From the NCBI GenBank assembly GCA_965204215.1, contig CBDBDZ010000014.1:1324588-1388587 (forward strand): 64,000 bases of DNA, in the 5' to 3' direction. This stretch comes from Pseudomonadales bacterium. Its GTDB lineage: Bacteria; Pseudomonadota; Gammaproteobacteria; Pseudomonadales; GM7GCV1. How positions within the stretch are numbered: position 1 is the first letter of the stretch; each line of letters opens with the position of its first letter. This document shows positions 7,984-48,400 of this stretch, piece by piece. A program made the translations under genes and the position numbers. The notes beneath the pieces are model-generated. The model had not been told where the DNA came from, did not search any database, and saw only the letters and a program-made list of their open reading frames with translations.

Positions 7984-8010
7984 AAACCCAAATTATGCAT
8001 AATCTGGGTT
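7984..8010. repeat. Rep-E motif, palindromic copy (AACCCAAATTATGCATAATCTGGGTT)
   Basis: 27-bp near-perfect palindrome. Read on the minus strand it starts with the TAA stop of the 8009-8611 gene (TAACCCAGATTATGCAT). Confidence 0.55.
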
Positions 8011-8611
8011 AAAGCTCATTCTCGTCTTGTACTTGAGAACTTTGCTCATGGTCATGTAGATCATCCAGTACAATAGTCAAATCATCAGGGTAAGAAGTCA
8101 CTATGTATAAACCAGACTCAGCATCTAACTTATATAATGTATCATAGGCATAGTGATATTCTTCGCCTGCATTGATAATTTTAATACTCTTTTCCGGTAA
8201 TTCTTCAATAGTTGCTCCAATAGGGGCTTCAACAGGGAAATATAGCCCACTTCTGCGTCGAAAATAAGAACCGTGTGAGTAATAATAACGTTTTCCGTCA
8301 AATTTCATTTTAGTGTAGGGCTTTTCGATACGTCGATAACCTGGGTGGTCATAAAAACCTATACGATGACTAAAAGATGGGTAGTAAAAGTGATTAAAAC
8401 TTTTTCGGTGGTGAAAAAAACGAGAAGATCCAAAACCCCTGTGTCCAAAAAAACGGCCTCCATAGTGATTGTAGTGGCTAAATCCATAGGGAGAGAAATG
8501 TTTAAAGTGTCTTTTACCGTTTGCCATCAATGAAGAACTGAACACTAAACTTAGTAATAAAAGGCTTGCGACAAGCGTTAATTTGTATAATAGTGGTTTC
8601 AACATAATCAT
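8009..8611 (-). CDS. Hypothetical secreted protein with a His/Phe/Tyr/Arg/Gly-rich N-terminal half and an acidic tail
   Basis: 200-aa ORF with a clear signal peptide (LLLLSLVFSSSLMA). A low-complexity segment reads HFKHFSPYGFSHYNHYGGRFFGHRGFGSSRFFHHRKSFNHFYYPSFSH. I recognise no family with confidence. Confidence 0.55.
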   Translation of the reverse strand: MIMLKPLLYKLTLVASLLLLSLVFSSSLMANGKRHFKHFSPYGFSHYNHYGGRFFGHRGFGSSRFFHHRKSFNHFYYPSFSHRIGFYDHPGYRRIEKPYTKMKFDGKRYYYSHGSYFRRRSGLYFPVEAPIGATIEELPEKSIKIINAGEEYHYAYDTLYKLDAESGLYIVTSYPDDLTIVLDDLHDHEQSSQVQDENEL

Positions 8612-8655: not shown

Positions 8656-9249
8656 TTGGTTCATTATAACTCGATTCATTGCTGTGTTTTAGGGGCTGGC
8701 GCATCAAGCCGTTTTGGTTCTGTCAAGCAACTATATCCTATTGACGGGATTTCGATGATGGATAGGGCATTATTTAATTTACAAACGGTTAAGAGTCATT
8801 TTATAAACTGTTATACATCGGTGATATTGGGTGCCCATTATACGCTGATTCAGCCTGCCATTAAGAGGCAATGTAAAATACAGTCAACTGACATTTTATA
8901 CAATGCTAACTGGCAACAAGGCATCTCAAGTTCCATTCATATAGCAGTGAAACACAGCATGGATAAAGGTTGTAATGGGTTATTAATTACTTTGGCTGAT
9001 CAACCTTATATTGCTGCTGAAGAATTGATCGCATTACTTAAATCAGGTTTGGCAAATAATATTGCAGCGGCTGAGTATGGAGATAGAGTAGGGGTACCTG
9101 CCTATTTTGATAGTAGTTATTTTTCACGGCTATTAATATTGCAGGGCGATTTAGGGGCTGGTAAGTTACTCAATAACGAAAAAGTGCGGAGATGCAAGTT
9201 CAATAATTTAAGTGATATGGACAGGTCGCCTGAGACCTTTTTGCAATAA
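8656..9249 (+). CDS. MobA/MocA-like nucleotidyltransferase (molybdenum cofactor cytidylyl/guanylyl-transferase family), TTG start
   Basis: N-terminal VLGAGASSRFGSVKQL matches the GxGxSxRxG...K NTP-transferase loop. LITLADQPYI matches the DQP motif. The C-terminus ends around DMDRSPE. Confidence 0.7.
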   Translation: MVHYNSIHCCVLGAGASSRFGSVKQLYPIDGISMMDRALFNLQTVKSHFINCYTSVILGAHYTLIQPAIKRQCKIQSTDILYNANWQQGISSSIHIAVKHSMDKGCNGLLITLADQPYIAAEELIALLKSGLANNIAAAEYGDRVGVPAYFDSSYFSRLLILQGDLGAGKLLNNEKVRRCKFNNLSDMDRSPETFLQ

Positions 9250-9427
9250 AATCTTTTTTATTACAAAAATCTCGACCTACATCACCCAATTAATAATGCG
9301 CTCTTCTAACTCGTCAGGGTGATAGTGCTCTTCACTGATAAATTTACCTTTCATTGATATGCCAGCATCAATAACACTTTGAGGGGTTTTGCTAATTAAA
9401 GGGTGCCAATCAAATAACGGTTTACCT
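8950..9427. repeat. 478-bp direct duplication flanking the IS1634-family element, left copy
   Basis: Aligns base for base with 11320-11797 at an offset of 2370. I found only two mismatches (9226 T vs 11596 C; 9327 G vs 11697 A). It abuts the left IS terminus directly. Confidence 0.9.
9277..9427 (-). pseudogene. Duplicated 3' fragment of the ycgN-like gene (copy inside the left direct repeat)
   Basis: This is the 9277-9427 copy of 11647-11797 within the 478-bp direct repeat (offset 2370). It is truncated at the IS boundary, so it has no start codon. Confidence 0.75.
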
Positions 9428-11319
9428 CCCGACTTCGACACTTTTTTTCGTAAGTGATTGATTTTAAAAGAGTCCCAATTTTAGTTAGGCACTACAAGCT
9501 ATTTATTAAGAGTTATTTATAAGTTTCTACGTTAGCTGGAATGGAGTGGTTGAGAGTTTTCGACCCATCACCTGGTAAATTTTGCTGGCCTCAGGGTTAA
9601 CATTGGAAGGAATGCAATAAAGCACTTTCGTTTTGATATGCACCAATAGACTACGCTGAACATGCAATAGCGCATTGCGGATCACAGCAGGTGATAACTT
9701 TCTGTGCTGGAGCTTGACACGATAGCTTAAGAATCGCACTAAGCTAAATGCAACAAAAGAGATAGCCAGATGAGCTTGAATGCGTTTGGGTGTCCAGTGA
9801 TAGATAGGGCGTACTTTCAGATCATGTTTGGTGATGCGAAAACTGTCTTCAACTTGCCATAGCCCTTTGTAATGACCAAAAACGCCCTGTGCTGACATGG
9901 TGTCTAATGACGTTACTACGCCCTTGAGCCCATCCCATTGGGAATCGCGTTCTATTTTGCTCTGGTCAACACTGATATGCGTGTCGCCTGCCATTTTCAA
10001 ATACTTCTTGTAACCAAAATTGCTGAGCAGGCTCTTAGGATTCTTACTTCGCTTAAGTTTTTTAGTAATGCGTTCTATGGATTGCTCCCTATCCTTTCGG
10101 TCTTTCTCTGCTCGGGCATGATTATATTCAACAATCCAGCGTCTACCCTGATATGTAAACTCATAGCTGCGGGGTTCATCGTCATTACCTTGTTTGAGAT
10201 AGCCAACTTGTTTCAAGATGGCTCTTTGCTCTTGTTGGGGTAAGGTCTTGAGTTTAGCCCCCACAATGTAGGGTATCTCCTGAGCTTCAAGATGAGTCAA
10301 ATTATTCTGACTCAGCAACCCTCTGTCAGCAACAAATACAATGCGTTCAATGTCATAGTGTAAGTGTAAATCAGCAATCGCTGCTTGTAACGTATGACCC
10401 TCAAATGTGTTGCCTGGATATACTTCATAACCGACAGGTAACCCATCTTGAGTCACCAATAACGCCAACAGAACCTGAGGCTGGTTAAACTTCATATCCT
10501 TACTATAACCATTGCTTTTTAACTCATCTTCTGTAAAAGATTCAAAATAAAGTGTTGTACAGTCAAAGAACAACACATCAACAGCATGACCTACCAGCTG
10601 ACGTGTTCCTGATAGCACGGTATCCTTTATTCGATTAATCGCTTTATCATCCAATTTATCCATCATCCGATAGACTTTCTCCAATGGGATGCTAATGCCA
10701 AAATCTTGCTCTAATGAGGTCACCGTCTCTCGTTTGCTGACAGGATTAGCAATACGAGCCAATACAATATGGCGGAAAATATCAACAGCACTGACATTAT
10801 GGCTGGGGTGACCAATCGATGAACCAAAACCCAATTCATCGAATAATTGACCATATATCTCATGGATACCCACAGTGACACGCTGTTGTTCACGCAGTTG
10901 TTTTAAATCAACCTGAAGCGGTTTGTTTGATTCAGATTGTGATTTACTTTCAATAACTTGCTGTGCGACCTGCTCTGGATTAAACAAACTGGCCTGATGT
11001 TCAGCCTCAATATTGGCTTTAACATATTCGGCAACTTCTTTTAATTTAACCAGTTCGTCGTCATTCATGGCAACGCCAACGTAGCGTACTATCTTTTGCT
11101 TGACTTTGTTACCATCGCGAATACTTTCAACAATTTGAACAGTTTTGCGTGGGCTATTGGGAGTGGACTTAACTCGAACGAACATAGCGTCATTATAGCA
11201 CAGTGCAAAACGAAAGTAAATAATAAAAATTAACTAGGCACTACAAATCAAAACCCAAGTATTTTGACCAATTTAGTAGCTTTCAAGCTTGATTAGATGA
11301 CAAATCTGTCGAAGTCGGG
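9428..11319 (-). mobile_element. Intact IS1634-family (IS4-like) insertion sequence, ~1.89 kb
   Basis: Perfect 13-bp terminal inverted repeats: CCCGACTTCGACA at 9428-9440 and its reverse complement at 11307-11319. A single 552-aa DDE transposase ORF fills the element. A subterminal TAGGCACTACAA motif occurs near both ends. Confidence 0.9.
9527..11185 (-). CDS. IS1634-family DDE transposase
   Basis: 552 aa. The N-terminus MFVRVKSTPNSPRKTVQIVESIRDGNKVKQKIVRYVG is typical of IS1634-type transposases. Candidate DDE residues lie in LFFDCTTLYFES, IVFVADRGLLS and LWQVEDSFRITKHDLKVRPIYH. Confidence 0.9.
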   Translation of the reverse strand: MFVRVKSTPNSPRKTVQIVESIRDGNKVKQKIVRYVGVAMNDDELVKLKEVAEYVKANIEAEHQASLFNPEQVAQQVIESKSQSESNKPLQVDLKQLREQQRVTVGIHEIYGQLFDELGFGSSIGHPSHNVSAVDIFRHIVLARIANPVSKRETVTSLEQDFGISIPLEKVYRMMDKLDDKAINRIKDTVLSGTRQLVGHAVDVLFFDCTTLYFESFTEDELKSNGYSKDMKFNQPQVLLALLVTQDGLPVGYEVYPGNTFEGHTLQAAIADLHLHYDIERIVFVADRGLLSQNNLTHLEAQEIPYIVGAKLKTLPQQEQRAILKQVGYLKQGNDDEPRSYEFTYQGRRWIVEYNHARAEKDRKDREQSIERITKKLKRSKNPKSLLSNFGYKKYLKMAGDTHISVDQSKIERDSQWDGLKGVVTSLDTMSAQGVFGHYKGLWQVEDSFRITKHDLKVRPIYHWTPKRIQAHLAISFVAFSLVRFLSYRVKLQHRKLSPAVIRNALLHVQRSLLVHIKTKVLYCIPSNVNPEASKIYQVMGRKLSTTPFQLT

Positions 11320-11619
11320 AAACACAGCATGGATAAAGGTTGTAATGGGTTATTAATTACTTTGGCTGATCAACCTTATATTGCTGCTGAAGAATTGATC
11401 GCATTACTTAAATCAGGTTTGGCAAATAATATTGCAGCGGCTGAGTATGGAGATAGAGTAGGGGTACCTGCCTATTTTGATAGTAGTTATTTTTCACGGC
11501 TATTAATATTGCAGGGCGATTTAGGGGCTGGTAAGTTACTCAATAACGAAAAAGTGCGGAGATGCAAGTTCAATAATTTAAGTGATATGGACAGGCCGCC
11601 TGAGACCTTTTTGCAATAA
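11320..11619 (+). pseudogene. Duplicated 3' fragment of the mocA-like gene (the 96-aa ORF at 11329-11619 is a shadow of it)
   Basis: The translation is identical to the C-terminal 96 aa of the 8656-9249 product except for S->P (DRSPETFLQ vs DRPPETFLQ). The NTP-binding N-terminus is absent. Confidence 0.8.
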
Positions 11620-11797
11620 AATCTTTTTTATTACAAAAATCTCGACCTACATCACCCAATTAATAATGCGCTCTTCTAACTCGTCAGGGTGATAGTACTC
11701 TTCACTGATAAATTTACCTTTCATTGATATGCCAGCATCAATAACACTTTGAGGGGTTTTGCTAATTAAAGGGTGCCAATCAAATAACGGTTTACCT
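11320..11797. repeat. 478-bp direct duplication flanking the IS1634-family element, right copy
   Basis: See the left copy at 8950-9427. This copy abuts the right IS terminus directly. Confidence 0.9.
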
Positions 11798-12078
11798 TCA
11801 GCAAGTAGTCGATAGGCACAGGTTTTGGGCAGCCAGTTGAAGTTATCAATATTGTCTTTGGTCAATTGAATACAATCACTGACTAAAAACCTGCGATGGC
11901 TGTAATTTTTACAGTTGCAATCATCGTCTAATAATTTGCAGCTTATTCGAGAGTATTGAATATCGCCAGAATCAATATCTTCAAATTTGTGCAGGCAACA
12001 TTGACCACAGCGGTCGCACAAAGACTCCCATTGGGTATCATTCATTTCTGTCAGTTTAAGTTTTTGCCAAAATGACAT
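11647..12078 (-). CDS. ycgN: YcgN-like UPF0260 cysteine-cluster protein
   Basis: MSFWQKL...WESLCDRCGQCCLHK...CKLLD..CNCKNY..R...DCIQLT...WLPKTCAYRLLAEGKPLFDWHPL is collinear with E. coli YcgN. I place the start at the internal ATG (12078) rather than the ORF-track start at 12255. Confidence 0.8.
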   Translation of the reverse strand: MSFWQKLKLTEMNDTQWESLCDRCGQCCLHKFEDIDSGDIQYSRISCKLLDDDCNCKNYSHRRFLVSDCIQLTKDNIDNFNWLPKTCAYRLLAEGKPLFDWHPLISKTPQSVIDAGISMKGKFISEEYYHPDELEERIINWVM

Positions 12079-30430: not shown

Positions 30431-33400
30431 TACACTAACGCCAGCAAACCTGATTTTAACAGAAGGCGCGACAGCCAGCTTTACAGTGAGTTTAGGCAGT
30501 CAGCCTAATAACCCGGTAACGGTATCGGTGGCAAATCCAGATACCAGTCAATTAACAGTATCACCTCAGACATTAACATTTTCAACTTCTAATTTTAACA
30601 TAGCCCAGACAGTAACAATAGTAACAGTAGAAAATACAATTGTAGAAGCCAGTGAGACCGTGCCGATTCATTTAAACTTTATCAGCACAGATACGAATTT
30701 TAATACGTTGTCAGATACTGTGAGTGTGGTTATTATTGATAATGATACCGCCACATTTAGCGTAGCTGATGTGACGGTGTCAGAGACAGCAGGCGCTGCG
30801 ACTGTCACTGTTGCGCTGGACTTGCCGATTGAAGGCGGTGCTACACTTACCTTGATGAGTGCAGACTTTGCTCCGGTTGATGCTGCTGCCGGAAGTGATT
30901 ACAGCGCAACCACCGCAACGCTGTTTTTTGCCAGTAACAGCACCACAGCTCAAAGTTTCAGTGTTGGCATTATTGACGATACCCTGGTTGAAAACCTGGT
31001 TGAGGGCACTGAGCAGTTTCGCATTGATATCACTGCGGTTAACCCGGTTGAAGCTATTGCAGCAAGTGCATTTAATCTGGGTGATACGGCGACGGTATCC
31101 ATTACCGATAATGACACCACTACCATCACCATAGCAGATGTAAGTGCAGCAGAAGGTGATGGGCCTAACAATGTGACGGTCACCATTAGCTTGAGTAACC
31201 CGGTTGAGGGCGGACTGACTGCCACCATTGCCAGCAGCGGCAATTCAGCTCTCAGTGGCAGTGATTTTTCAGCACTGAGTCAGGTTATCAGTTTTGCCGA
31301 TAGCAGCACCGCCAGTAGCAGTGTGCAGTTGACTGTTTTAGGTGATGCAATTATTGAAGCAGATGAGACCTTGCAACTGTTTGTTGCCAGTGTTGCCGCA
31401 GCCGAGGCCTCGAACAGCCAGATACTCAGACAAACTGGCACCTTTACTATTGAAAATGATGATTTTGCTGCCATCACCATTGCTGATGCCAGTGGCAGTG
31501 AGTCGTCAGGCACTATCAGTGTCCGCTTTAATGTGAATTTGGCGGTTGCCGGTGGTTTTACCCTGACAGTGCAGAGCGATAGTGGCAGTGCGATAGAAGG
31601 CGTCGACTTTAGCTCTGTTGATTCACAGCAAGTTGCTTTTGCCGGTAGTGCCAATGAAACCCAGACCCTGGTATTGACAGTTACTAACGATACGATTATT
31701 GAGGCTAATGAAACCTTGCGTATTCGTATCAGTGCAGTAAACCCTGGTGTTGCACAGGCTGGCGATTTTAATATTAGCGACACCGCAACGCTGACGATAA
31801 TAAACGATGATACCGCCACATTTAGCGTAGCCGATGTGACGGTGTCAGAGACAGCTGGCGCTGCGACTGTCACTGTTGCGCTGGATTTGCCGATTGAAGG
31901 CGGTGCTACGCTTACCTTGATGAGTGCAGACTTTGCTCCGGTTGATGCCGCTGCTGGCAGCGATTACAGCGCAACCACAGCAACGCTGTTTTTTGCCAGT
32001 AACAGCACCACAGCTCAAAGTTTCAGTGTTGGCATTATTGACGATACCCTGGTTGAAAATCTGGTTGAGGGCACTGAGCAGTTTCGCATTGATATCACTG
32101 CGGTTAACCCGGTTGAAGCTATTGCAGCAAGTGCATTTAATCTGGGTGATACGGCGACGGTATCCATTACCGATAATGACACCACTACCATCACCATAGC
32201 AGATGTAAGTGCAGCAGAAGGTGATGGGCCTAACAATGTGACGGTCACCATTAGCCTGAGTAACCCGGTTGAGGGCGGACTGACTGCCACCATTGCCAGC
32301 AGTGGCAATTCAGCTCTCAGTGGCAGTGATTTTTCAGCACTGAGTCAGGTTATCAGTTTTGCCGATAGCAGCACCGCCAGTAGCAGTGTGCAGTTAACTG
32401 TTTTAGGTGATGCAATCATTGAAGCAGATGAGACCTTGCAACTGTTTGTTGCCAGTGTTGCTGCAGCCGAGGCCTCGAATAGCCAGATACTCAGACAAAC
32501 CGGCACCTTTACTATTGAAAATGATGATTTTGCTACTATTAGTATTGCTGATGTCAGTGCGAGTGAGTCGTCTGGCACTATCAGTATTGGCTTGAGTGTG
32601 GATTTGGCGGTTGCCGGTGGTTTTACCCTGACAGTACAGAGCGATAGTGGCAGTGCGATAGAAGGCGACGACTTTAGCTCTGTTGATTCACAGCAAGTTG
32701 CTTTTGCCGGTAGTGCCAATGAAACCCAGACCCTGGTATTGACAGTTACTAACGATACGATTATTGAAGCCAATGAAACCTTGCGTATTCGTATCAGTGC
32801 AGTCGACCCTGGTGTTGCACTGGCTGGCGATTTTAATATTAGCGACACCGCAACGCTGACGATAATAAACGATGATACCGCCACATTTAGCGTAGCTGAT
32901 GTGACGGTGTCAGAGACAGCTGGCGCTGCGACTGTCACTGTTGCGCTGGATTTGCCGATTGAAGGCGGTGCTACACTTACCTTGATGAGTGCAGACTTTG
33001 CTCCGGTTGATGCTGCTGCTGGCAGCGATTATAGCGCAACCACCGCAACGCTGTTTTTTGCCAGTAACAGCACCACAGCTCAAAGTTTCAGTGTTGGCAT
33101 TATTGACGATACCCTGGTTGAAAACCTGGTTGAGGGCACTGAGCAGTTTCGCATTGATATCACTGCGGTTAACCCGGTTGAAGCTATTGCAGCAAGTGCA
33201 TTTAATCTGGGTGATACGGCGACGCTATTCATTACCGATAATGATACCACTACCATCACCATAGCAGATGTAAGTGCAGCAGAAGGTGATGGGCCTAACA
33301 ATGTGACGGTCACCATTAGCTTGAGTAACCCGGTTGAGGGCGGACTGACTGCCACCATTGCCAGCAGTGGCAATTCAGCTCTCAGTGGCAGTGATTTTTC

Positions 33401-36400
33401 AGCATTGAGTCAGGTTATTAGTTTTGCCGATAGCAGCACTGCCAGTAGCAGTGTGCAGTTAACTATTTTAGGTGATGCAATCATTGAAGCAGATGAGACC
33501 TTGCAACTGTTTGTTGCCAGTGTTGCCGCAGCCGAGGCCTCGAACAGCCAGATACTCAGACAAACTGGCACCTTTACTATTGAAAATGATGATTTTGCTG
33601 CCATCACCATTGCTGATGCCAGTGGCAGTGAGTCGTCAGGCACTATCAGTGTCCGCTTTAATGTGAATTTGGCGGTTGCCGGTGGTTTTACCCTGACAGT
33701 GCAGAGCGATAGTGGCAGTGCGATAGAAGGCGACGACTTTAGCTCTGTTGATTCACAGCAAGTTGCTTTTGCCGGTAGTGCCAATGAAACCCAGACCCTG
33801 GTATTGACAGTTACTAACGATACGATTATTGAAGCCAATGAAACCTTGCGTATTCGTATCAGTGCAGTCGACCCTGGTGTTGCACAGGCTAGTGATTTTA
33901 ATATTAGCGACACCGCAACGCTGACGATAATAAACGATGATACCGCCACATTTAGCGTAGCTGATGTGACGGTGTCAGAGACAGCTGGCGCTGCGACTGT
34001 CACTGTTGCGCTGGATTTGCCGATTGAAGGCGGTGCTACACTTACCTTGATGAGTGCAGACTTTGCTCCGGTTGATGCTGCTGCTGGCAGCGATTACAGC
34101 GCAACCACCGCAACGCTGTTTTTTGCCAGTAACAGCACCACAGCTCAAAGTTTCAGTGTTGGCATTATTGACGATACCCTGGTTGAAAATCTGGTTGAGG
34201 GCACTGAGCAGTTTCGCATTGATATCACTGCGGTTAACCCGGTTGAAGCTATTGCAGCAAGTGCATTTAATCTGGGTGATACGGCGACGGTATCCATTAC
34301 CGATAATGACACCACTACCATCACCATAGCAGATGTAAGTGCAGCAGAAGGTGATGGGCCTAACAATGTGACGGTCACCATTAGCCTGAGTAACCCGGTT
34401 GAGGGCGGACTGACTGCCACCATTGCCAGCAGCGGCAATTCAGCTCTCAGTGGCAGTGATTTTTCAGCACTGAGTCAGGTTATCAGTTTTGCCGATAGCA
34501 GCACCGCCAGTAGCAGTGTGCAGTTGACTGTTTTAGGTGATGCAATCATTGAAGCAGATGAGACCTTGCAACTGTTTGTTGCCAGTGTTGCCGCAGCCGA
34601 GGCCTCGAACAGCCAGATACTCAGACAAACTGGCACCTTTACTATTGAAAATGATGATTTTGCTGCCATCACCATTGCTGATGCCAGTGGCAGTGAGTCG
34701 TCAGGCACTATCAGTGTCCGCTTTAATGTGAATTTGGCGGTTGCCGGTGGTTTTACCCTGACAGTGCAGAGCGATAGTGGCAGTGCGATAGAAGGCGACG
34801 ACTTTAGCTCTGTTGATTCACAGCAAGTTGCTTTTGCCGGTAGTGCCAATGAAACCCAGACCCTGGTATTGACAGTTACTAACGATACGATTATTGAAGC
34901 CAATGAAACCTTGCGTATTCGTATCAGTGCAGTAAACCCTGGTGTTGCACTGGCTAGCGATTTTAATATTAGCGACACCGCAACGCTGACGATAATAAAC
35001 GATGATACCGCTACCTTTAGCGTAGCTGATGTGACGGTGTCAGAGACAGCTGGCGCTGCGACTGTCACTGTTGCGCTGGATTTGCCGATTGAAGGCGGTG
35101 CTACACTTACCTTGATGAGTGCAGACTTTGCTCCGGTTGATGCTGCTGCTGGCAGCGATTACAGCGCAACCACCGCAACGCTGTTTTTTGCCAGTAACAG
35201 CACCACAGCTCAAAGTTTCAGTGTTGGCATTATTGACGATACCCTGGTTGAAAATCTGGTTGAGGGCACTGAGCAATTTCGTATTGATATCAGCGCGGTT
35301 AACCCGGTTGAAGCTATTGCAGCAAGTGCGTTTAATCTGGGTGATACGGCGACGGTATCCATTACCGATAATGACACCACTACCATCACCATAGCAGATG
35401 TAAGTGCAGCAGAAGGCAATGGGCCTAACAATGTGACGGTCACCATTAGCTTGAGTAACCCGGTTGAGGGCGGACTGACTGCGACCATTGCCAGCAGTGA
35501 AAACTCGGCTCTCAGTGGCAGTGACTTTTCAACACTGAGTCAGGTTATCAGTTTTGCCGATAGCAGCACCGCCAGTAGCAGTGTGCAGTTAACTATTTTA
35601 GGTGATGCAATCATTGAAGCAGATGAGACCTTGCAACTGTTTGTTGCCAGTGTTGCTGCAGCCGAGGCCTCGAATAGCCAGATACTCAGACAAACTGGCA
35701 CCTTTACTATTGAAAATGATGATTTTGCTGCCATCACCATTGCTGATGTCAGTGGCAGTGAGTCTGGGACTATCAGTATTGGCTTGAGTGTGAATTTGGC
35801 GGTTGCCGGTGGGTTTACCCTGACAGTGCAGAGCGATAGTGGTAGCGCGATAGAAGGCGACGACTTTAGCTCTGTTGATTCACAGCAAGTTGCTTTTGCC
35901 GGTAGTGCCAATGAAACCCAGACCCTGGTATTGACAGTTACTAACGATACGATTATTGAAGCCAATGAAACCTTGCGTATTCGTATCAGTGCAGTCGACC
36001 CTGGTGTTGCACTGGCTGGCGATTTTAATATTAGCGACACCGCAACGCTGACGATAATAAACGATGATACCGCCACATTTAGCGTAGCTGATGTGACGGT
36101 GTCAGAGACAGCTGGCGCTGCCACTATTTCTGTTACTCTGGACTTGCCGATTGAAGGAGGGGCTACGCTTACCTTGATGAGTGCAGACTTTGCTCCGGTT
36201 GATGCCGCTGCTGGCAGCGATTATAGCGCAACCACCGCAACGCTGTTTTTTGCCAGTAACAGCACCACAGCTCAAAGTTTCAGTGTTGGCATTATTGACG
36301 ATACCCTGGTTGAAAACCTGGTTGAGGGCACTGAGCAATTTCGTATTGATATCAGCGCGGTTAACCCGGTTGAAGCTATTGCAGCAAGTGCGTTTAATCT

Positions 36401-39400
36401 GGGTGATACGGCGACGGTATTCATTACCGATAATGATACCACTACCATCACCGTAGCAGATGTGAGTGCAGCAGAAGGCAATGTGTCTAACAATGTGACG
36501 GTCACCATTAGCCTGAGTAACCCGGTTGAGGGCGGACTGACTGCGACCATTGCCAGCAGTGAAAACTCGGCTCTCAGTGGCGATGACTTTTCAGCACTGA
36601 GTCAGGTTATCAGTTTTGCCGATAGCAGCACTGCCAGTAGCAGTGTGCAGTTGACTGTTTTAGGTGATGCAATTATTGAAGCAGATGAGACCTTGCAACT
36701 GTTTGTTGCCAGTGTTGCCGCAGCCGAGGCCTCGAATAGCCAGATACTCAGACAAACTGGTACCTTTAGCATTGTAAATGATGATTTTGCTGCCATCACC
36801 ATTGATGATGTCAGTGGCAGTGAGTCTGGGACTATCAGTATTGGCTTGAGTGTGAATTTGGCGGTTGCCGGTGGTTTTACCCTGACAGTACAGAGCGATA
36901 GTGGCAGTGCAGTAGAGGGCGTCGACTTTAGCTCTGCTGACTCTCAGCAGGTTGCTTTTGCCGGTAGTGCCAATGAAACCCAGACCCTGGTATTGACAGT
37001 TACTAACGATACGATTATTGAGGCCAATGAAACCTTGCGTATTCGTATCAGTGCAGTCGACCCTGGTGTTGCACAGGCTGGCGATTTTAATATTAGCGAC
37101 ACCGCAACGCTGACGATAATAAACGATGATACCGCTACCTTTAGCGTAGCTGATGTGACGGTGTCAGAGACAGCTGGCGCTGCGACTGTCACTGTTGCGC
37201 TGGATTTGCCGATTGAAGGCGGTGCTACACTTACCTTGATGAGTGCAGACTTTGCTCCGGTTGATGCTGCTGCTGGCAGCGATTACAGCGCAACCACCGC
37301 AACGCTGTTTTTTGCCAGTAACAGCACCACAGCTCAAAGTTTCAGTGTTGGCATTATTGACGATACCCTGGTTGAAAATCTGGTTGAGGGCACTGAGCAG
37401 TTTCGCATTGATATCACTGCGGTTAACCCGGTTGAAGCTATTGCAGCAAGTGCATTTAATCTGGGTGATACGGCGACGGTATCCATTACCGATAATGACA
37501 CCACTACCATCACCATAGCAGATGTAAGTGCAGCAGAAGGCAATGGGCCTAACAATGTGACGGTCACCATTAGCTTGAGTAACCCGGTTGAGGGCGGACT
37601 GACAGCAACCATTGCCAGCAGTGGCAATTCAGCTCTCAGTGGCAGTGATTTTTCAGCACTGAGTCAGGTTATCAGTTTTGCCGATAGCAGCACCGCCAGT
37701 AGCAGTGTGCAGTTAACTGTTTTAGGTGATGCAATTATTGAAGCAGATGAGACCTTGCAACTGTTTGTTGCCAGTGTTGCCGCAGCCGAGGCCTCGAACA
37801 GCCAGATACTCAGACAAACTGGCACCTTTACTATTGAAAATGATGATTTTGCTGCCATCACCATTGATGATGTCAGTGGCAGTGAGTCTGGGACTATCAG
37901 TATTGGCTTGAGTGTGAATTTGGCGGTTGCCGGTGGTTTTACCCTGACAGTACAGAGCGATAGTGGCAGTGCGATAGAAGGCGTCGACTTTAGCTCTGTT
38001 GATTCACAGCAAGTTGCTTTTGCCGGTAGTGCCAATGAAACCCAGACCCTGGTATTGACAGTTACTAACGATACGATTATTGAAGCCAATGAAACCTTGC
38101 GTATTCGTATCAGTGCAGTCGACCCTGGTGTTGCACAGGCTGGCGATTTTAATATTAGCGACACCGCAACGCTGACGATAATAAACGATGATAGCGCCAC
38201 ATTTAGCGTAGCTGATGTGACGGTGTCAGAGACAGCTGGCGCTGCGACTGTCACTGTTGCGCTGGATTTGCCGATTGAAGGCGGTGCTACACTTACCTTG
38301 ATGAGTGCAGACTTTGCTCCGGTTGATGCTGCTGCCGGAAGTGATTACAGCGCAACCACAGCAACGCTGTTTTTTGCCAGTAACAGCACCACAGCTCAAA
38401 GTTTCAGTGTTGGCATTATTGACGATACCCTGGTTGAAAACCTGGTTGAGGGCACTGAGCAGTTTCGCATTGATATCACTGCGGTTAACCCGGTTGAAGC
38501 TATTGCAGCAAGTGCGTTTAATCTGGGTGATACGGCGACGGTATCCATTACCGATAATGACACCACTACCATCACCATAGCAGATGTAAGTGCAGCAGAA
38601 GGTGATGGGCCTAACAATGTGACGGTCACCATTAGCCTGAGTAACCCGGTTGAGGGCGGACTGACTGCGACCATTGCCAGCAGCGGCAATTCAGCTCTCA
38701 GTGGCAGTGATTTTTCAGCACTGAGTCAGGTTATCAGTTTTGCCGATAGCAGCACCGCCAGTAGCAGTGTGCAGTTAACTGTTTTAGGTGATGCAATTAT
38801 TGAAGCAGATGAGACCTTGCAACTGTTTGTTGCCAGTGTTGCCGCAGCCGAGGCCTCGAATAGCCAGATACTCAGACAGACTGGGACTTTTAGCATTGAA
38901 AATGATGATTTTGCTGCCATCACCATTGCTGATGTCAGTGGCAGTGAGTCTGGGACTATCAGTATTGGCTTGAGTGTGAATTTGGCGGTTGCCGGTGGTT
39001 TTACCCTGACAGTACAGAGCGATAGTGGCAGTGCAGTAGAGGGCGTCGACTTTAGCTCTGCTGACTCGCAGCAGGTTGCTTTTGCCGGTAGTGCCAATGA
39101 AACCCAGACCCTGGTATTGACACTTACTAACGATACGGTTATTGAGGCCAATGAAACCTTGCGTATTCGTATCAGTGCAGTCGAGCCTGGTGTTGCACAG
39201 GCTGGCGATTTTAATATTAGCGACACCGCAACGCTGACGATAATAAACGATGATAGCGCCACATTTAGCGTAGCTGATGTGACGGTGTCAGAGACAGCTG
39301 GCGCTGCCACTATTTCTGTTACTCTGGACTTGCCGATTGAAGGAGGGGCTACGCTTACCTTGATGAGTGCAGACTTTGCTCCGGTTGATGCCGCTGCTGG

Positions 39401-42400
39401 CAGCGATTATAGCGCAACCACCGCAACGCTGTTTTTTGCCAGTAACAGCACCACAGCTCAAAGTTTCAGTGTTGGCATTATTGACGATACCCTGGTTGAA
39501 AACCTGGTTGAGGGCACTGAGCAATTTCGTATTGATATCAGCGCGGTTAACCCGGTTGAAGCTATTGCAGCAAGTGCGTTTAATCTGGGTGATACGGCGA
39601 CGGTATTCATTACCGATAATGATACCACTACCATCACCATAGCAGATGTAAGTGCAGCAGAAGGTGATGGGCCTAACAATGTGACGGTCACCATTAGCTT
39701 GAGTAACCCGGTTGAGGGCGGACTGACTGCGACCATTGCCAGCAGTGAAAACTCGGCTCTCAGTGGCAGTGACTTTTCAGCACTGAGTCAGGTTATCAGT
39801 TTTGCCGATAGCAGCACCGCCAGTAGCAGTGTGCAGTTAACTATTTTAGGTGATGCAATCATTGAAGCAGATGAGACCTTGCAACTGTTTGTTGCCAGTG
39901 TTGCTGCAGCCGAGGCCTCGAATAGCCAGATACTCAGACAAACTGGCACCTTTACTATTGAAAATGATGATTTTGCTGCCATCACCATTGCTGATGTCAG
40001 TGGCAGTGAGTCTGGGACTATCAGTATTGGCTTGAGTGTGAATTTGGCGGTTGCCGGTGGGTTTACCCTGACAGTGCAGAGCGATAGTGGTAGCGCGATA
40101 GAAGGCGACGACTTTAGCTCTGTTGATTCACAGCAAGTTGCTTTTGCCGGTAGTGCCAATGAAACCCAGACCCTGGTATTGACAGTTACTAACGATACGA
40201 CTATTGAGGCCAATGAAACCTTGCGTATTCGTATCAGTGCAGTCGAGCCTGGTGTTGCACAGGCTGGCGATTTTAATATTAGCGACACCGCAACGCTGAC
40301 GATAATAAACGATGATAGCGCCACATTTAGCGTAGCTGATGTGACGGTGTCAGAGACAGCTGGCGCTGCCACTATTTCTGTTACTCTGGACTTGCCGATT
40401 GAAGGAGGGGCTACGCTTACCTTGATGAGTGCAGACTTTGCTCCGGTTGATGCCGCTGCTGGCAGCGATTATAGCGCAACCACCGCAACGCTGTTTTTTG
40501 CCAGTAACAGCACCACAGCTCAAAGTTTCAGTGTTGGCATTATTGACGATACCCTGGTTGAAAACCTGGTTGAGGGCACTGAGCAATTTCGTATTGATAT
40601 CAGCGCGGTTAACCCGGTTGAAGCTATTGCAGCAAGTGCGTTTAATCTGGGTGATACGGCGACGGTATTCATTACCGATAATGATACCACTACCATCACC
40701 GTAGCAGATGTGAGTGCAGCAGAAGGCAATGTGTCTAACAATGTGACGGTCACCATTAGCTTGAGTAACCCGGTTGAGGGCGGACTGACTGCGACCATTG
40801 CCAGCAGTGGCAATTCAGCTCTCAGTGGCAGTGATTTTTCAGCACTGAGTCAGGTTATCAGTTTTGCCGATAGCAGCACCGCCAGTAGCAGTGTGCAGTT
40901 AACTGTTTTAGGTGATGCAATTATTGAAGCAGATGAGACCTTGCAACTGTTTGTTGCCAGTGTTGCCGCAGCCGAGGCCTCGAACAGCCAGATACTCAGA
41001 CAAACTGGCACCTTTACTATTGAAAATGATGATTTTGCTGCCATCACCATTGCTGATGCCAGTGGCAGTGAGTCGTCAGGCACTATCAGTGTCCGCTTTA
41101 ATGTGAATTTGGCGGTTGCCGGTGGTTTTACCCTGACAGTACAGAGCGATAGTGGCAGTGCAGTAGAGGGCGTCGACTTTAGCTCTGTTGATTCACAGCA
41201 AGTTGCTTTTGCCGGTAGTGCCAATGAAACCCAGACCCTGGTATTGACAGTTACTAACGATACGATTATTGAAGCCAATGAAACCTTGCGTATTCGTATC
41301 AGTGCAGTAAACCCTGGTGTTGCACTGGCTAGTGATTTTAATATTAGCGACACCGCAACGCTGACGATAATAAACGATGATAGCGCCACATTTAGCGTAG
41401 CTGATGTGGCGGTGTCAGAGACAGCTGGCGCTGCCACTATTTCTGTTACTCTGGACTTGCCGATTGAAGGTGGGGCTACGCTTACCTTGATGAGTGCAGA
41501 CTTTGCTCCGGTTGATGCCGCTGCCGGAAGTGATTACAGCGCAACCACAGCAACGCTGTTTTTTGCCAGTAACAGCACCACAGCTCAAAGTTTCAGTGTT
41601 GGCATTATTGACGATACCCTGGTTGAAAATCTGGTTGAGGGCACTGAGCAATTTCGTATTGATATCAGCGCGGTTAACCCGGTTGAAGCTATTGCAGCAA
41701 GTGCGTTTAATCTGGGTGATACGGCGACGGTATCCATTACCGATAATGACACCACTACCATCACCATAGCAGATGTAAGTGCAGCAGAAGGTGATGGGCC
41801 TAACAATGTGACGGTCACCATTAGCTTGAGTAACCCGGTTGAGGGCGGACTGACTGCGACCATTGCCAGCAGTGGCAATTCAGCTCTCAGTGGCAGTGAT
41901 TTTTCAGCACTGAGTCAGGTTATCAGTTTTGCCGATAGCAGCACCGCCAGTAGCAGTGTGCAGTTAACTGTTTTAGGTGATGCAATTATTGAAGCAGATG
42001 AGACCTTGCAACTGTTTGTTGCCAGTGTTGCCGCAGCCGAGGCCTCGAACAGCCAGATACTCAGACAAACTGGCACCTTTACTATTGAAAATGATGATTT
42101 TGCTGCCATCACCATTGCTGATGCCAGTGGCAGTGAGTCGTCAGGCACTATCAGTGTCCGCTTTAATGTGAATTTGGCGGTTGCCGGTGGTTTTACCCTG
42201 ACAGTACAGAGCGATAGTGGCAGTGCGATAGAAGGCGACGACTTTAGCTCTGTTGATTCACAGCAAGTTGCTTTTGCCGGTAGTGCCAATGAAACCCAGA
42301 CCCTGGTATTGACAGTTACTAACGATACGATTATTGAGGCCAATGAAACCTTGCGTATTCGTATCAGTGCAGTCGACCCTGGTGTTGCACAGGCTGGCGA

Positions 42401-45400
42401 TTTTAATATTAGCGACACCGCAACGCTGACGATAATAAACGATGATAGCGCCACATTTAGCGTAGCTGATGTGACGGTGTCAGAGACAGCTGGCAATACC
42501 AATATCACTGTTTCCTTAAATCTGCCGATTGAAGGTGGGGCTACGCTTACCTTGATGAGTGCAGACTTTGCTCCGGTTGATGCTGCTGCCGGAAGTGATT
42601 ACAGCGCAACCACAGCAACGCTGTTTTTTGCCAGTAACAGCACCACAGCTCAAAGTTTCAGTGTTGGCATTATTGACGATACCCTGGTTGAAAATCTGGT
42701 TGAGGGCACTGAGCAGTTTCGCATTGATATCACTGCGGTTAACCCGGTTGAAGCTATTGCAGCAAGTGCATTTAATCTGGGTGATACGGCGACGGTATCC
42801 ATTACCGATAATGACACCACTACCATCACCATAGCAGATGTAAGTGCAGCAGAAGGTGATGGGCCTAACAATGTGACGGTCACCATTAGCCTGAGTAACC
42901 CGGTTGAGGGCGGACTGACTGCGACCATTGCCAGCAGCGGCAATTCAGCTCTCAGTGGCAGTGATTTTTCAGCACTGAGTCAGGTTATCAGTTTTGCCGA
43001 TAGCAGCACTGCCAGTAGCAGTGTGCAGTTAACTGTTTTAGGTGATGCAATTATTGAAGCAGATGAGACCTTGCAACTGTTTGTTGCCAGTGTTGCCGCA
43101 GCCGAGGCCTCGAACAGCCAGATACTCAGACAAACTGGTACCTTTAGCATTGTAAATGATGATTTTGCTACTATTAGTATTGCTGATGTCAGTGCGAGTG
43201 AGTCGTCTGGCACTATCAGTATTCAGTTTAGTGTGGATTTGGCGGTTGCCGGTGGGTTTACCCTGACAGTACAGAGCGATAGTGGCAGTGCGATAGAAGG
43301 CGACGACTTTAGCTCTGTTGATTCACAGCAAGTTGCTTTTGCCGGTAGTGCCAATGAAACCCAGACCCTGGTATTGACAGTTACTAACGATACGACTATT
43401 GAAGCCAATGAAACCTTGCGTATTCGTATCAGTGCAGTCGACCCTGGTGTTGCACTGGCTGGCGATTTTAATATTAGCGACACCGCAACGCTGACGATAA
43501 TAAACGATGATACCGCTACCTTTAGCGTAGCTGATGTGACGGTGTCAGAGACAGCAGGCGCTGCGACTGTCACTGTTGCGCTGGACTTGCCGATTGAAGG
43601 AGGGGCTACACTTACCTTGATGAGTGCAGACTTTGCTCCGGTTGATGCCGCTGCTGGCAGCGATTACAGCGCAACCACAGCAACGCTGTTTTTTGCCAGT
43701 AACAGCACCACAGCTCAAAGTTTCAGTGTTGGCATTATTGACGATACCCTGGTTGAAAACCTGGTTGAGGGCACTGAGCAATTTCGTATTGATATCACTG
43801 CGGTTAACCCGGTTGAAGCTATTGCAGCAAGTGCGTTTAATCTGGGTGGTACGGCGACGGTATTCATTACCGATAATGATACCACTACCATCACCGTAGC
43901 AGATGTGAGTGCAGCAGAAGGCAATGTGTCTAACAATGTGACGGTCACCATTAGCTTGAGTAACCCGGTTGAGGGCGGACTGACTGCGACCATTGCCAGC
44001 AGTGAAAACTCGGCTCTCAGTGGCAGTGACTTTTCAGCACTGAGTCAGGTTATCAGTTTTGCCGATAGCAGCACCGCCAGTAGCAGTGTGCAGTTAACTA
44101 TTTTAGGTGATGCAATCATTGAAGCAGATGAGACCTTGCAACTGTTTGTTGCCAGTGTTGCTGCAGCCGAGGCCTCGAATAGCCAGATACTCAGACAAAC
44201 TGGCACCTTTACTATTGAAAATGATGATTTTGCTGCCATCACCATTGCTGATGTCAGTGGCAGTGAGTCTGGGACTATCAGTATTGGCTTGAGTGTGAAT
44301 TTGGCGGTTGCCGGTGGGTTTACCCTGACAGTGCAGAGCGATAGTGGTAGCGCGATAGAAGGCGACGACTTTAGCTCTGTTGATTCACAGCAAGTTGCTT
44401 TTGCCGGTAGTGCCAATGAAACCCAGACCCTGGTATTGACAGTTACTAACGATACGACTATTGAGGCCAATGAAACCTTGCGTATTCGTATCAGTGCAGT
44501 CGAGCCTGGTGTTGCACAGGCTGGCGATTTTAATATTAGCGACACCGCAACGCTGACGATAATAAACGATGATAGCGCCACATTTAGCGTAGCTGATGTG
44601 ACGGTGTCAGAGACAGCTGGCGCTGCCACTATTTCTGTTACTCTGGACTTGCCGATTGAAGGAGGGGCTACGCTTACCTTGATGAGTGCAGACTTTGCTC
44701 CGGTTGATGCCGCTGCTGGCAGCGATTATAGCGCAACCACCGCAACGCTGTTTTTTGCCAGTAACAGCACCACAGCTCAAAGTTTCAGTGTTGGCATTAT
44801 TGACGATACCCTGGTTGAAAACCTGGTTGAGGGCACTGAGCAATTTCGTATTGATATCAGCGCGGTTAACCCGGTTGAAGCTATTGCAGCAAGTGCGTTT
44901 AATCTGGGTGATACGGCGACGGTATTCATTACCGATAATGATACCACTACCATCACCGTAGCAGATGTGAGTGCAGCAGAAGGCAATGTGTCTAACAATG
45001 TGACGGTCACCATTAGCTTGAGTAACCCGGTTGAGGGCGGACTGACTGCGACCATTGCCAGCAGTGGCAATTCAGCTCTCAGTGGCAGTGATTTTTCAGC
45101 ACTGAGTCAGGTTATCAGTTTTGCCGATAGCAGCACCGCCAGTAGCAGTGTGCAGTTAACTGTTTTAGGTGATGCAATCATTGAAGCAGATGAGACCTTG
45201 CAACTGTTTGTTGCCAGTGTTGCCGCAGCCGAGGCCTCGAATAGCCAGATACTCAGACAAACTGGTACCTTTAGCATTGTAAATGATGATTTTGCCAACA
45301 TTAGCATTGCCGATGCCAGTGGCAGTGAATCGGCTACTATCAGTATTCAGTTTAGTGTGGATTTGGCGGTTGCCGGTGGTTTTACCCTGACAGTACAGAG

Positions 45401-48400
45401 CGATAGTGGCAGTGCAGTAGAGGGCGTCGACTTTAGCTCTGCTGACTCGCAGCAGGTTGCTTTTGCCGGTAGTGCCAATGAAACCCAGACCCTGGTATTG
45501 ACAGTTACTAACGATACGATTATTGAGGCCAATGAAACCTTGCGTATTCGTATCAGTGCAGTCGACCCTGGTGTTGCACAGGCTGACGATTTTAATATTG
45601 CTGATAGCGCTACGGTCACCATCATTAACGATGATACCGCTACCTTTAGCGTAGCTGATGTGACGGTGTCAGAGACAGCTGGCAATGCCACTATTTCTGT
45701 TACTCTGGACTTGCCGATTGAAGGCGGTGCTACGCTTACCTTGATGAGTGCAGACTTTGCTCCGGTTGATGCTGCTGCCGGAAGTGATTACAGCGCAACC
45801 ACAGCAACGCTGTTTTTTGCCAGTAACAGCACCACAGCTCAAAGTTTCAGTGTTGGCATTATTGACGATACCCTGGTTGAAAATCTGGTTGAGGGCACTG
45901 AGCAGTTTCGCATTGATATCACTGCGGTTAACCCGGTTGAAGCTATTGCAGCAAGTGCATTTAATCTGGGTGATACGGCGACGGTATCCATTACCGATAA
46001 TGACACCACTACCATCACCATAGCAGATGTAAGTGCAGCAGAAGGCAATGTGTCTAACAATGTGACGGTCACCATTAGCTTGAGTAACCCGGTTGAGGGC
46101 GGACTGACTGCCACCATTGCCAGCAGTGGCAATTCAGCTCTCAGTGGCAGTGATTTTTCAGCACTGAGTCAGGTTATCAGTTTTGCCGATAGCAGCACTG
46201 CCAGTAGCAGTGTGCAGTTAACTGTTTTAGGTGATGCAATTATTGAAGCAGATGAGACCTTGCAACTGTTTGTTGCCAATGTTGCCGCAGCCGAGGCCTC
46301 GAACAGCCAGATACTCAGACAAACTGGCACCTTTACTATTGAAAATGATGATTTTGCTGCCATCACCATTGCTGATGCCAGTGGCAGTGAGTCTGGCACT
46401 ATCAATATTGGCTTGAGTGTGGATTTAGCTGTTGCCGGTGGTTTTACCCTGACAGTACAGAGCGATAGTGGCAGTGCGATAGAAGGCGACGACTTTAGCT
46501 CTGTTGATTCACAGCAAGTTGCTTTTGTCGGTAGTGCCAATGAAACCCAGACCCTGGTATTGACACTTACTAACGATACGATTATTGAAGCCAATGAAAC
46601 CTTGCGTATTCGTATCAGTGCAGTCGACCCTGGTGTTGCACAGGCTGGCGATTTTAATATTAGCGACACCGCAACGCTGACGATAATAAACGATGATACC
46701 GCTACCTTTAGCGTAGCTGATGTGACGGTGTCAGAGACAGCTGGCAATGCCAATATCACTGTTTCCTTAAATCTGCCGATTGAAGGTGGGGCTACGCTTA
46801 CCTTGATGAGTGCAGACTTTGCTCCGGTTGATGCTGCTGCCGGAAGTGATTACAGCGCAACCACAGCAACGCTGTTTTTTGCCAGTAACAGCACCACAGC
46901 TCAAAGTTTCAGTGTTGGTATTATTGACGATACCCTGGTTGAAAATCTGGTTGAGGGCACTGAGCAGTTTCGCATTGATATCACTGCGGTTAACCCGGTT
47001 GAAGCTATTGCAGCAAGTGCATTTAATCTGGGTGATACGGCGACGGTATCCATTACCGATAATGATACCACTACCATCACCGTAGCAGATGTGAGTGCAG
47101 CAGAAGGTGATGGGTCTAACAATGTGACGGTCACCATTAGCCTGAGTAACCCGGTTGAGGGCGGACTGACTGCCACCATTGCCAGCAGTGAAAACTCGGC
47201 TCTCAGTGGCGATGACTTTTTAGCACTGAGTCAGGTTATCAGTTTTGCCGATAGCAGCACTGCCAGTAGCAGTGTGCAGTTAACTGTTTTAGGTGATGCA
47301 ATTATTGAAGCAGATGAGACCTTGCAACTGTTTGTTGCCAGTGTTGCCGCAGCCGAGGCCTCGAACAGCCAGATACTCAGACAAACTGGCACCTTTACTA
47401 TTGAAAATGATGATTTTGCTGCCATCACCATTGATGATGTCAGTGGCAGTGAGTCTGGGACTATCAGTATTGGCTTGAGTGTGAATTTGGCGGTTGCCGG
47501 TGGTTTTACCCTGACAGTACAGAGCGATAGTGGCAGTGCGATAGAAGGCGTCGACTTTAGCTCTGTTGATTCACAGCAAGTTGCTTTTGCCGGTAGTGCC
47601 AATGAAACTCAAACTTTTGTTATAATCCCTGTGGAAGATAATATCGTTGAACGTAATGAAACACTACTGATAAGTATTGATATATCAGACTCTGGAATTG
47701 CGTTGGTTAGCGACTTTACAACGGATACGGCTGAAATTACCATTAATAATAATGATACGGCTACATTTATGGTAAATGATGCCTCTGAAGCGGAGAGTGC
47801 AGGCTCGATAACTGTCAGTGTCACATTGGATAACCCAATTGATGGAGGTGCCAGTGTTACAGTGGCTACCATGTTTATTGCTAACGATGCATCAGCTAAT
47901 GACTTTGTGACTTCTACTGTGATTGTTTTCTTTTCGGATGATAGTACCGCTACACAACTGATTAATATTATGCTTAATGACGAAAATGTGGTTGAAGCTG
48001 ATGAAAGGGCAGAAATTCGAATATTAGCGGTCACACCCACATTTGAGATAGCTTCTGGCTTTTTTAATAGTAACGACACTGGAACGATTACTATAATCAA
48101 TGATGATGCTGCAAGTTTTACTGTTGTCGATATTAGCCCGGTTGAAGGAGATAATACAGCTACAATAAGTGTGATAGTAGAATTAAGCGCCCCTGTTGAA
48201 GGCGGGGTGAGCGCGACTTACCAAACCATTGGTGTCGATACAGAATCTGATGACTTTGTCGCATTTACTCAAACTGTTTTTTATGCGGATACTAGTACTA
48301 CTGATGATACCCTGGCACTGGTTATTTTGGGTGATACTCTTGTTGAGGCCGATGAGTCTTTGCTTATTAGCCTGGTTTCCATTAACCCGGCTGAAGCTTC

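Follow-up and report, generated by a model that had tools for sequence, protein, structure and literature searches.

An IS1634-family insertion sequence bracketed by a 478-bp direct repeat at the convergent 3' ends of a mocA-like gene and ycgN

A 64,000-nucleotide stretch of a Pseudomonadales genome assembly (GCA_965204215.1, contig CBDBDZ010000014.1, positions 1,324,588 to 1,388,587; hereafter the window, in whose own numbering all positions are given) carries an insertion sequence (IS) of the IS1634 family at the place where the 3' ends of two convergent genes, a mocA-like gene and ycgN, meet. The IS lies between two direct copies of a 478-bp segment of host DNA. Very probably, a single transposition event placed the IS between the two genes, and the 478-bp repeat represents the target-site duplication of the element.

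The element, its repeat and the flanking genes

Self-comparison of the window at an offset of +2370 aligned two 478-bp segments with two mismatches (99.6% identity), located at 9226/11596 (T/C) and 9327/11697 (G/A), and a repeat of this length and fidelity cannot have arisen by chance. The 1,892 bp between the two copies open with CCCGACTTCGACA and close with its exact reverse complement, TGTCGAAGTCGGG. This tip 13-mer is found at these two sites only in the window, where 0.02 matches would be expected, and a repeat finder listed the same pair of direct repeats and the same pair of inverted repeats. As G8949 is identical to G11319, the final base of the IS, the repeat measures 478 bp, or 479 bp if that base is assigned to the target; the former value is preferred because it leaves the tips symmetrical. 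A preliminary description of the locus had proposed a 1.89-kb element with perfect 13-bp inverted tips, abutted exactly by a 478-bp duplication with two mismatches, and all of these particulars were confirmed (Table 1).

The repeat covers the 3' ends of both convergent genes together with the 27-bp spacer between them, and therefore the left copy completes the mocA-like gene while the right copy completes ycgN. The mocA-like product matches Pfam PF12804 at 7.3e-22 and shows weak similarity to TIGR03310 (MocA/YgfJ); its top homologue is also 197 amino acids (aa) in length (98% coverage, 39% identity). YcgN, a CxxCxxCC cysteine-cluster protein, is recognized by the NCBIfam YcgN models with scores of up to 190 bits over residues 60-201 of a 202-aa open reading frame (ORF), and the proteins of both neighbouring genes align with their family profiles through to the end. 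Beside the IS stand the redundant 3' fragments of the same two genes. An ORF at 9277-9441 reads ...GKPLFDWHPLISKTPQSVIDAGISMKGKFISEEHYHPDELEERIINWVM, which is the C-terminus of YcgN save for one H/Y difference, and another at 11329-11619 reproduces the last 96 aa of the mocA-like protein (197 aa) save for one S/P difference. Reading frames and profiles thus agree with the arrangement first proposed, in which each repeat copy completes one gene and leaves a fragment of the other next to the IS. The two fragments are by-products of the duplication rather than pseudogenes that arose separately, and the genes on either side of the IS are both whole.

The transposase scored 361.8 bits against the NCBIfam model for IS1634 transposases (NF033559; cut-off 100), matching profile positions 1-481 of 483. 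The runner-up family, IS1380, reached 38.4 bits, which is under its cut-off of 180, and Pfam DDE_Tnp_1 matched at 1.9e-11. Inspection of motifs, rather than a structure, identified D208, D287 and E446 as candidate catalytic residues, a spacer of 159 residues separating the second D from the E. The C1 motif, YKGLWQVEDSFRITK (Y439-KG-L-WQV-E446-DSFRIT-K453), carries leucine at the position of the YREK arginine; the usual absence of this arginine is the trait that distinguishes the IS1634 family, whose DDE domain also has a long N3-C1 spacer (PMC2266710). Members of the family are 1500-2000 bp long and have the end consensus C-----YT (De Palmenaer et al. 2008, PMC2266710), and the element fits this description with its 1,892 bp, single ORF, C at tip position 1 and TT at positions 7-8. 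The element departs from the family norm of a 5-6-bp AT-rich duplication, but its 478-bp repeat does not exclude membership because long, variable-length direct repeats of 8-514 bp are documented for IS1634 and IS1549 (PMC2266710). The family assignment, made in the preliminary description together with the statement that IS1634 creates long and variable repeats, is therefore upheld by the profile score, the size, the tip consensus and the YREK motif lacking R, and the statement on repeats is matched by the published range. Searches of plasmids with tblastn returned distant relatives only (35% identity or less); all of the annotated matches listed were IS1634-family transposases, and several of the listed matches carried no annotated feature. 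The closest transposase beyond the element's own 90% identity cluster is 68% identical.

Table 1. Features of the insertion locus (positions in the window)
Feature	Position	Strand	Remarks
Intact mocA-like (MobA-like NTP transferase) gene, 197 aa	8656..9249	+	Last 300 bp within left repeat copy
Left 478-bp direct repeat copy (probable target-site duplication)	8950..9427		Terminates precisely at IS tip
Redundant 3' ycgN fragment (last ~50 codons and stop)	9277..9427	-	Within left repeat copy
IS1634-family IS, 1,892 bp, 41% G+C	9428..11319	-	Transposase on minus strand; bounded by inverted and direct repeats
Terminal inverted repeat CCCGACTTCGACA (right tip in transposase orientation)	9428..9440	+	Core CCYGACTT conserved at both tips in all relatives
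Subterminal motif, copy 2	9481..9497	-	Direct orientation relative to copy 1; past transposase stop
Transposase gene, 552 aa, sole long ORF of element	9527..11185	-	NCBIfam NF033559, Pfam DDE_Tnp_1
Promoter-like site TTTACT-17 nt-TG-TATAAT	11192..11220	-	Consensus scan, 10/12 matches, extended -10; pattern match only
Subterminal motif, copy 1, TGTAGTGCCTA on transposase strand	11230..11246	-	Upstream of promoter-like site
Terminal inverted repeat (left tip in transposase orientation)	11307..11319	-	Perfect 13-bp match to other tip
Right 478-bp direct repeat copy	11320..11797		Begins precisely at IS tip
Redundant 3' mocA-like fragment (last ~99 codons)	11320..11619	+	Within right repeat copy
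Intact ycgN, 143 aa from ATG at 12078	11647..12078	-	Last ~50 codons within right repeat copy

The empty site and related insertions

The nearest homologue of YcgN (P0130, 80% identical) is encoded on a 2.3-kb metagenomic scaffold held in both ENA and JGI (L056/L057), on which ycgN and an NTP_transf_3 gene are convergent and present in single copy, with no IS between them. The outer neighbours also match those of the window, with an FGE-sulfatase-domain gene on one side and an isocitrate lyase gene on the other. In a three-way alignment, the scaffold is colinear over both repeat boundaries, tracking the outer flank of the left copy and then that of the right copy, and the ancestral arrangement was therefore single-copy, as the preliminary description had anticipated for a related genome. 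Homologues of the mocA-like protein were also considered as a source of empty sites and were dropped, their best match being 39% identical. At the 9327/11697 mismatch, the scaffold has G, as does the redundant ycgN fragment, and thus the His-to-Tyr change probably occurred in the intact ycgN and not in the fragment; the 9226/11596 mismatch coincides with an alignment gap in this comparison. Beyond the repeat, a DUF6515 gene (8009-8611, minus strand), whose 200-aa product is rich in His, Tyr, Phe and Arg and has a signal-like N-terminus, sits in the window between the isocitrate lyase and mocA-like genes; it has no counterpart in the scaffold, where the interval is ~590 bp shorter.

The 90% transposase cluster to which the element belongs comprises six members, including four full-length ones, on contigs of 1.24-1.43 Mb. 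Two more copies of the same IS (99.5% identical in nucleotide sequence) occupy other sites in the ENA metagenome ERZ25068762 (L060:1-1278 and L061:145-3009). An IS1380-like element (Pfam DDE_Tnp_1_4) has inserted into each of these two copies, and in L061 it is flanked by a 9-bp duplication, AGTAAGGAT; because both are interrupted in this manner, the observation suggests that the IS serves as a preferred or tolerated landing site for the IS1380-like element. A scan of the genome collection found no element closer than 54%, and a search of the JGI metagenomes for the exact tip gave no match.

The behaviour of more distant relatives was surveyed with elements whose transposases are ~40-60% identical, drawn from the genome collection, the metagenome collection and encoding contigs, and the findings of this survey rest on metagenome-derived assemblies. 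The ends of each element were set by the tip core CCYGACTT (Y, pyrimidine), independently of any repeat, and direct repeats were counted if they abutted both tips. Such repeats were found at 23 independent insertions and range from 19 to ~1190 bp. The shorter ones measure 19, 28, 29, 42, 52, 56, 68, 72, 80, 85, 110, 120 and 145 bp, and the longer ones ~180, 185, 209, ~220, ~527, 590, 780, 894, 1078 and ~1190 bp, such that the 478 bp of the window fall in mid-range. None of the relatives surveyed has a repeat of 5-6 bp, a result in favour of the preliminary description, which had proposed a comparison of flanking repeats. Four repeats (L012, ~1190 bp; L034, 1078 bp; L088, 780 bp; L114, 894 bp) are far longer than the published maximum of 514 bp (PMC2266710). 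The hosts of elements with CCYGACTT tips include Melioribacteraceae, Chlorobium, Bacteroidales, Gammaproteobacteria and Bdellovibrionales, alongside sequences known from metagenomes.

The two copies of a repeat are 96-100% identical among the relatives, and divergence of the older repeats (96-98% in L012, L018 and L088; 99.6% in the window) shows that the copies are real and separate. One insertion was found on a circular contig, L143, that has 417x coverage, and was recovered again in a second sample (L144). Two elements gave no interpretable repeat, one (L058, 68%) residing in a nest of IS fragments and the other (L142) lacking one end. A further relative, L027/L123, measures 4,039 bp between its tips, ~2.1 kb more than the others, and still has an abutting 56-bp repeat; the excess may represent an insertion or passenger DNA.

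Among distinct junctions, 78 on the left and 86 on the right, read 5' to 3' into the tip, position -1 is T in 88-90%, position -2 is a pyrimidine in 84-87%, and position -3 is a pyrimidine in 76-80%, with an extra preference for T at positions -4 and -5 of the left end. A YYT half-site therefore adjoins each tip, and does so irrespective of repeat length. Both junctions of the window conform (…GTGTTT before one tip and …TTTACCT before the other), as do L060 and L061, with AGG… and AG… after the right tip. The YYT bases lie inside the repeats and so are target rather than IS sequence; assignment of the T before each tip to the IS was rejected because this T forms part of the repeat and reappears where the right copy ends, away from the IS. 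Since the half-site preference holds at both tips, the junctions are sequence-selected joints and not random recombination breakpoints. Junctions chosen by sequence are what is expected of two transposase-catalysed joints, and not of homologous or illegitimate recombination.

A second conserved feature of these elements lies within their ends. The sequence TGTAGTGCCTA represents a 10-11-nt motif that occurs twice, in direct rather than inverted orientation, ~85-95 bp in from the left tip and ~58-70 bp in from the right. Of 29 related elements, 28 retain the motif at the corresponding positions, whereas the DNA around it is not conserved, and the motif may be a binding site for the transposase or a regulator that renders the two ends unequal. 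The promoter-like site downstream of its first copy stops 6 nt short of the transposase ATG, and a TTGAC-like -35 element is found at the corresponding place in relatives. Because the extended -10 ends so close to the start codon, the pattern suggests that the transposase mRNA is possibly leaderless.

Origin of the duplication

A genuine long target-site duplication is the most likely origin of the 478-bp repeat because the empty site is single-copy, the relatives have long repeats of their own, and a YYT half-site adjoins each tip. How such a duplication might form can be outlined from what is established about the chemistry of IS4-type DDE transposases. The two IS tips would attack through their 3'-OH ends, one on each strand of the target and each at a separate YYT half-site, with a 5' stagger of 478 bp between the joints as against the 5-6 bp usual in the family. 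Host DNA synthesis would then start at the two target 3' ends left free and copy the 478-bp interval on both sides of the IS, either by displacing a strand or with the help of a replication fork passing through. As the two cuts fell in different genes, an uninterrupted mocA-like gene is retained with the left copy and an uninterrupted ycgN with the right. Both the width of the stagger on a single duplex and the route of repair are inferred from this chemistry.

Several points weigh against a single long-stagger insertion. The sequence would be compatible with joining to one duplex as well as to two sister duplexes, and would accommodate more than one polymerase for the copying step. We know of no structural precedent among DDE transposases for a stagger of hundreds of bp. 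No mechanistic model for the long repeats had been proposed as of the 2008 family review (PMC2266710), and none was found in the literature since. The scaffold that shows the empty site is no more than ~75% identical to the locus in DNA, and thus represents a related lineage and not a conspecific strain. The copies L060 and L061 lack their left ends, which are lost to the IS1380-like insertion or the contig end, so that for this particular IS the repeats could be measured only in the window. Finally, six relatives with intact tips (L009, L014, L017, L019, L023 and L059) have no direct repeat, not even one of 2 bp, within the flanks of about 1.3-2.9 kb per side on which they were judged. Either the behaviour is therefore not uniform or these copies were rearranged later. 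They could represent opposite-polarity, deletion-type outcomes of a one-duplex or a sister-duplex route, products of later IS-by-IS recombination, or insertions whose repeats are longer than the flanks compared.

The first alternative also posits a single event, but with each tip joined to a different sister duplex in the wake of a replication fork, or at a fork or gap structure, with an offset of 478 bp; the duplication would then consist of sister A up to x+478 joined to sister B from x onward. Such a route would avoid the melting or displacement of hundreds of bp between the nicks. It would also predict offsets of either sign, and hence both duplications and deletions, and copies without repeats do exist. 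The longest repeat observed, ~1.2 kb, is comparable to the scale of bacterial Okazaki fragments, and one YYT half-site per tip fits this route equally well. It has no direct evidence in its favour, however, and it requires the additional breakage and repair of uncut strands, while the 19-30-bp repeats are accommodated equally well by continuous spacing of the joints on one duplex. We consider joining to sister duplexes unlikely.

A second alternative dispenses with an unusual transposition altogether. Two insertions of the same IS in the same orientation, 478 bp apart on sister chromosomes or in different members of a population, would yield the observed structure by unequal crossover between the IS copies, with a deletion as the reciprocal product. 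The end product would be structurally indistinguishable from a long target duplication, the IS is multi-copy in its own cluster and in another sample, and recombination between copies would also be expected to generate relatives without repeats. Yet two hits in the same orientation within 478 bp are required, and the same coincidence would be needed in 23 independent insertions in unrelated genomes. Moreover, no relative has a simple short-repeat insertion, and published members of the family make long repeats upon insertion (PMC2266710). This double-insertion pathway is very unlikely.

Hardly any weight can be given to a third alternative, namely that the repeat is an assembly artefact or a prior tandem duplication into whose junction the IS inserted later, for although the flanks of multi-copy ISs are classic sites of assembly error and the repeats of L034 and L114 are 100% identical in metagenome-assembled genome (MAG) or metagenome assemblies, the two differences between the copies in the window mean that they were assembled from distinct reads, the tips meet the junction exactly, in the window as in the 23 other insertions, which were obtained with varied assemblers and technologies, the circular L143 insertion recurs in L144, and insertion precisely at the junction of a prior duplication would have had to recur every time.

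Known elements, consequences for the host and the wider window

IS1634, the founder of the family, was reportedly described by Vilei, Nicolet and Frey in 1999 from Mycoplasma mycoides subsp. mycoides SC. The element in the window resembles it in its family transposase, single ORF, size of ~1.9 kb and long repeat, the 478 bp lying within the 8-514 bp recorded for the variable repeats of IS1634 and IS1549 together (PMC2266710); the host of IS1634 is a mollicute as opposed to the gammaproteobacterium-like genome here, and the likeness is known from the family profile rather than from direct sequence comparison. IS1549, said to have been described from Mycobacterium smegmatis by Plikaytis, Crawford and Shinnick in 1998, belongs to the same family and likewise makes long repeats, but in an actinobacterial host. 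The family originally bore the name of IS1549, and according to the title and summary cited in the family review, insertion of this element forms long direct repeats (PMC2266710). Other members behave differently, as exemplified by ISGka5 of Geobacillus kaustophilus, for which an observed transposition gave a 6-bp duplication (PMC8024623). Elements of the ISGka5 type resemble the present one in their DDE transposase, which is of the same family, in their size and in the C that opens their tips, yet they make duplications of 5-6 bp, in contrast to the 19 to ~1190 bp of the present element and its clade. Elements of the IS4 family (IS10, IS50/Tn5) make a fixed 9-bp stagger from one synaptic complex and possess a complete YREK motif. 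Their DDE_Tnp_1 domain is related, and their 5'-staggered attack by two 3'-OH ends provides the template for the mechanism outlined above, whereas the element in the window lacks the R (YKGL...E......K) and the spacing within its clade is not fixed.

Against this background, the locus is another case of the known IS1634/IS1549 long-repeat behaviour, a clean one but unsurprising, and its main yield is tidy annotation in which a 2.85-kb stretch resolves into one mobile element and its own target duplication. What is new with respect to the literature comes from the survey and not from the locus: a clade-wide behaviour associated with conserved tips, repeats of up to ~1.2 kb, a YYT half-site for each tip, and a subterminal motif that is conserved and present as a direct repeat. 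The survey suggests that long repeats are a property of a large and widespread clade rather than an oddity of one Mycoplasma and one Mycobacterium element, and both the breadth of the clade and the greater length of its repeats would ease the study of a mechanism that has remained unsolved. A stronger generalization, which we offer tentatively and would not be surprised to see revised, is that the whole multi-phylum clade defined by CCYGACTT tips and TGTAGTGCCTA never makes short duplications, its tips being joined independently at YYT sites from 19 bp to ~1.2 kb apart. Were this to hold, the clade maximum would be more than twice the published one, and insertions would often spare genes and be reversible by recombination. 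The clade would also supply a large natural data set with defined cis and trans components for the study of kilobase-scale duplication by a DDE transposase.

The sparing of genes would follow from the geometry of the duplication. If just one of the two cuts falls within a gene, that gene should survive whole in one copy, and at the level of ORFs this is true of both genes here. Major ORFs also appear to be spared in the relatives L002, L004, L021, L022 (two large convergent ORFs), L034 and L046. L001 and L018 each have a large ORF that reaches past both cuts and is disrupted, and small ORFs extend across both cuts in L022 (135 aa) and L028 (110 aa). In principle, homologous recombination of one repeat copy with the other could remove the IS along with one copy scarlessly, restoring the original site, and 478 bp should be ample homology for such RecA-dependent loss. 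The two mismatches indicate that loss and restoration of this kind have not occurred at this site for some time.

Elsewhere in the window, an open frame on the plus strand begins at ~28566 and continues beyond 64000, running off the window after more than 35 kb and over 11,700 codons without a stop. It contains a tandem array (30742-47760) of at least 16 units of 1062-1065 bp that are 93-99% identical to one another, and whose sequence may be Calx-beta-like. A non-coding nature of the array at 30.7-47.8 kb was considered and rejected, as the array lies in the giant open frame, which probably encodes a giant repetitive surface protein.

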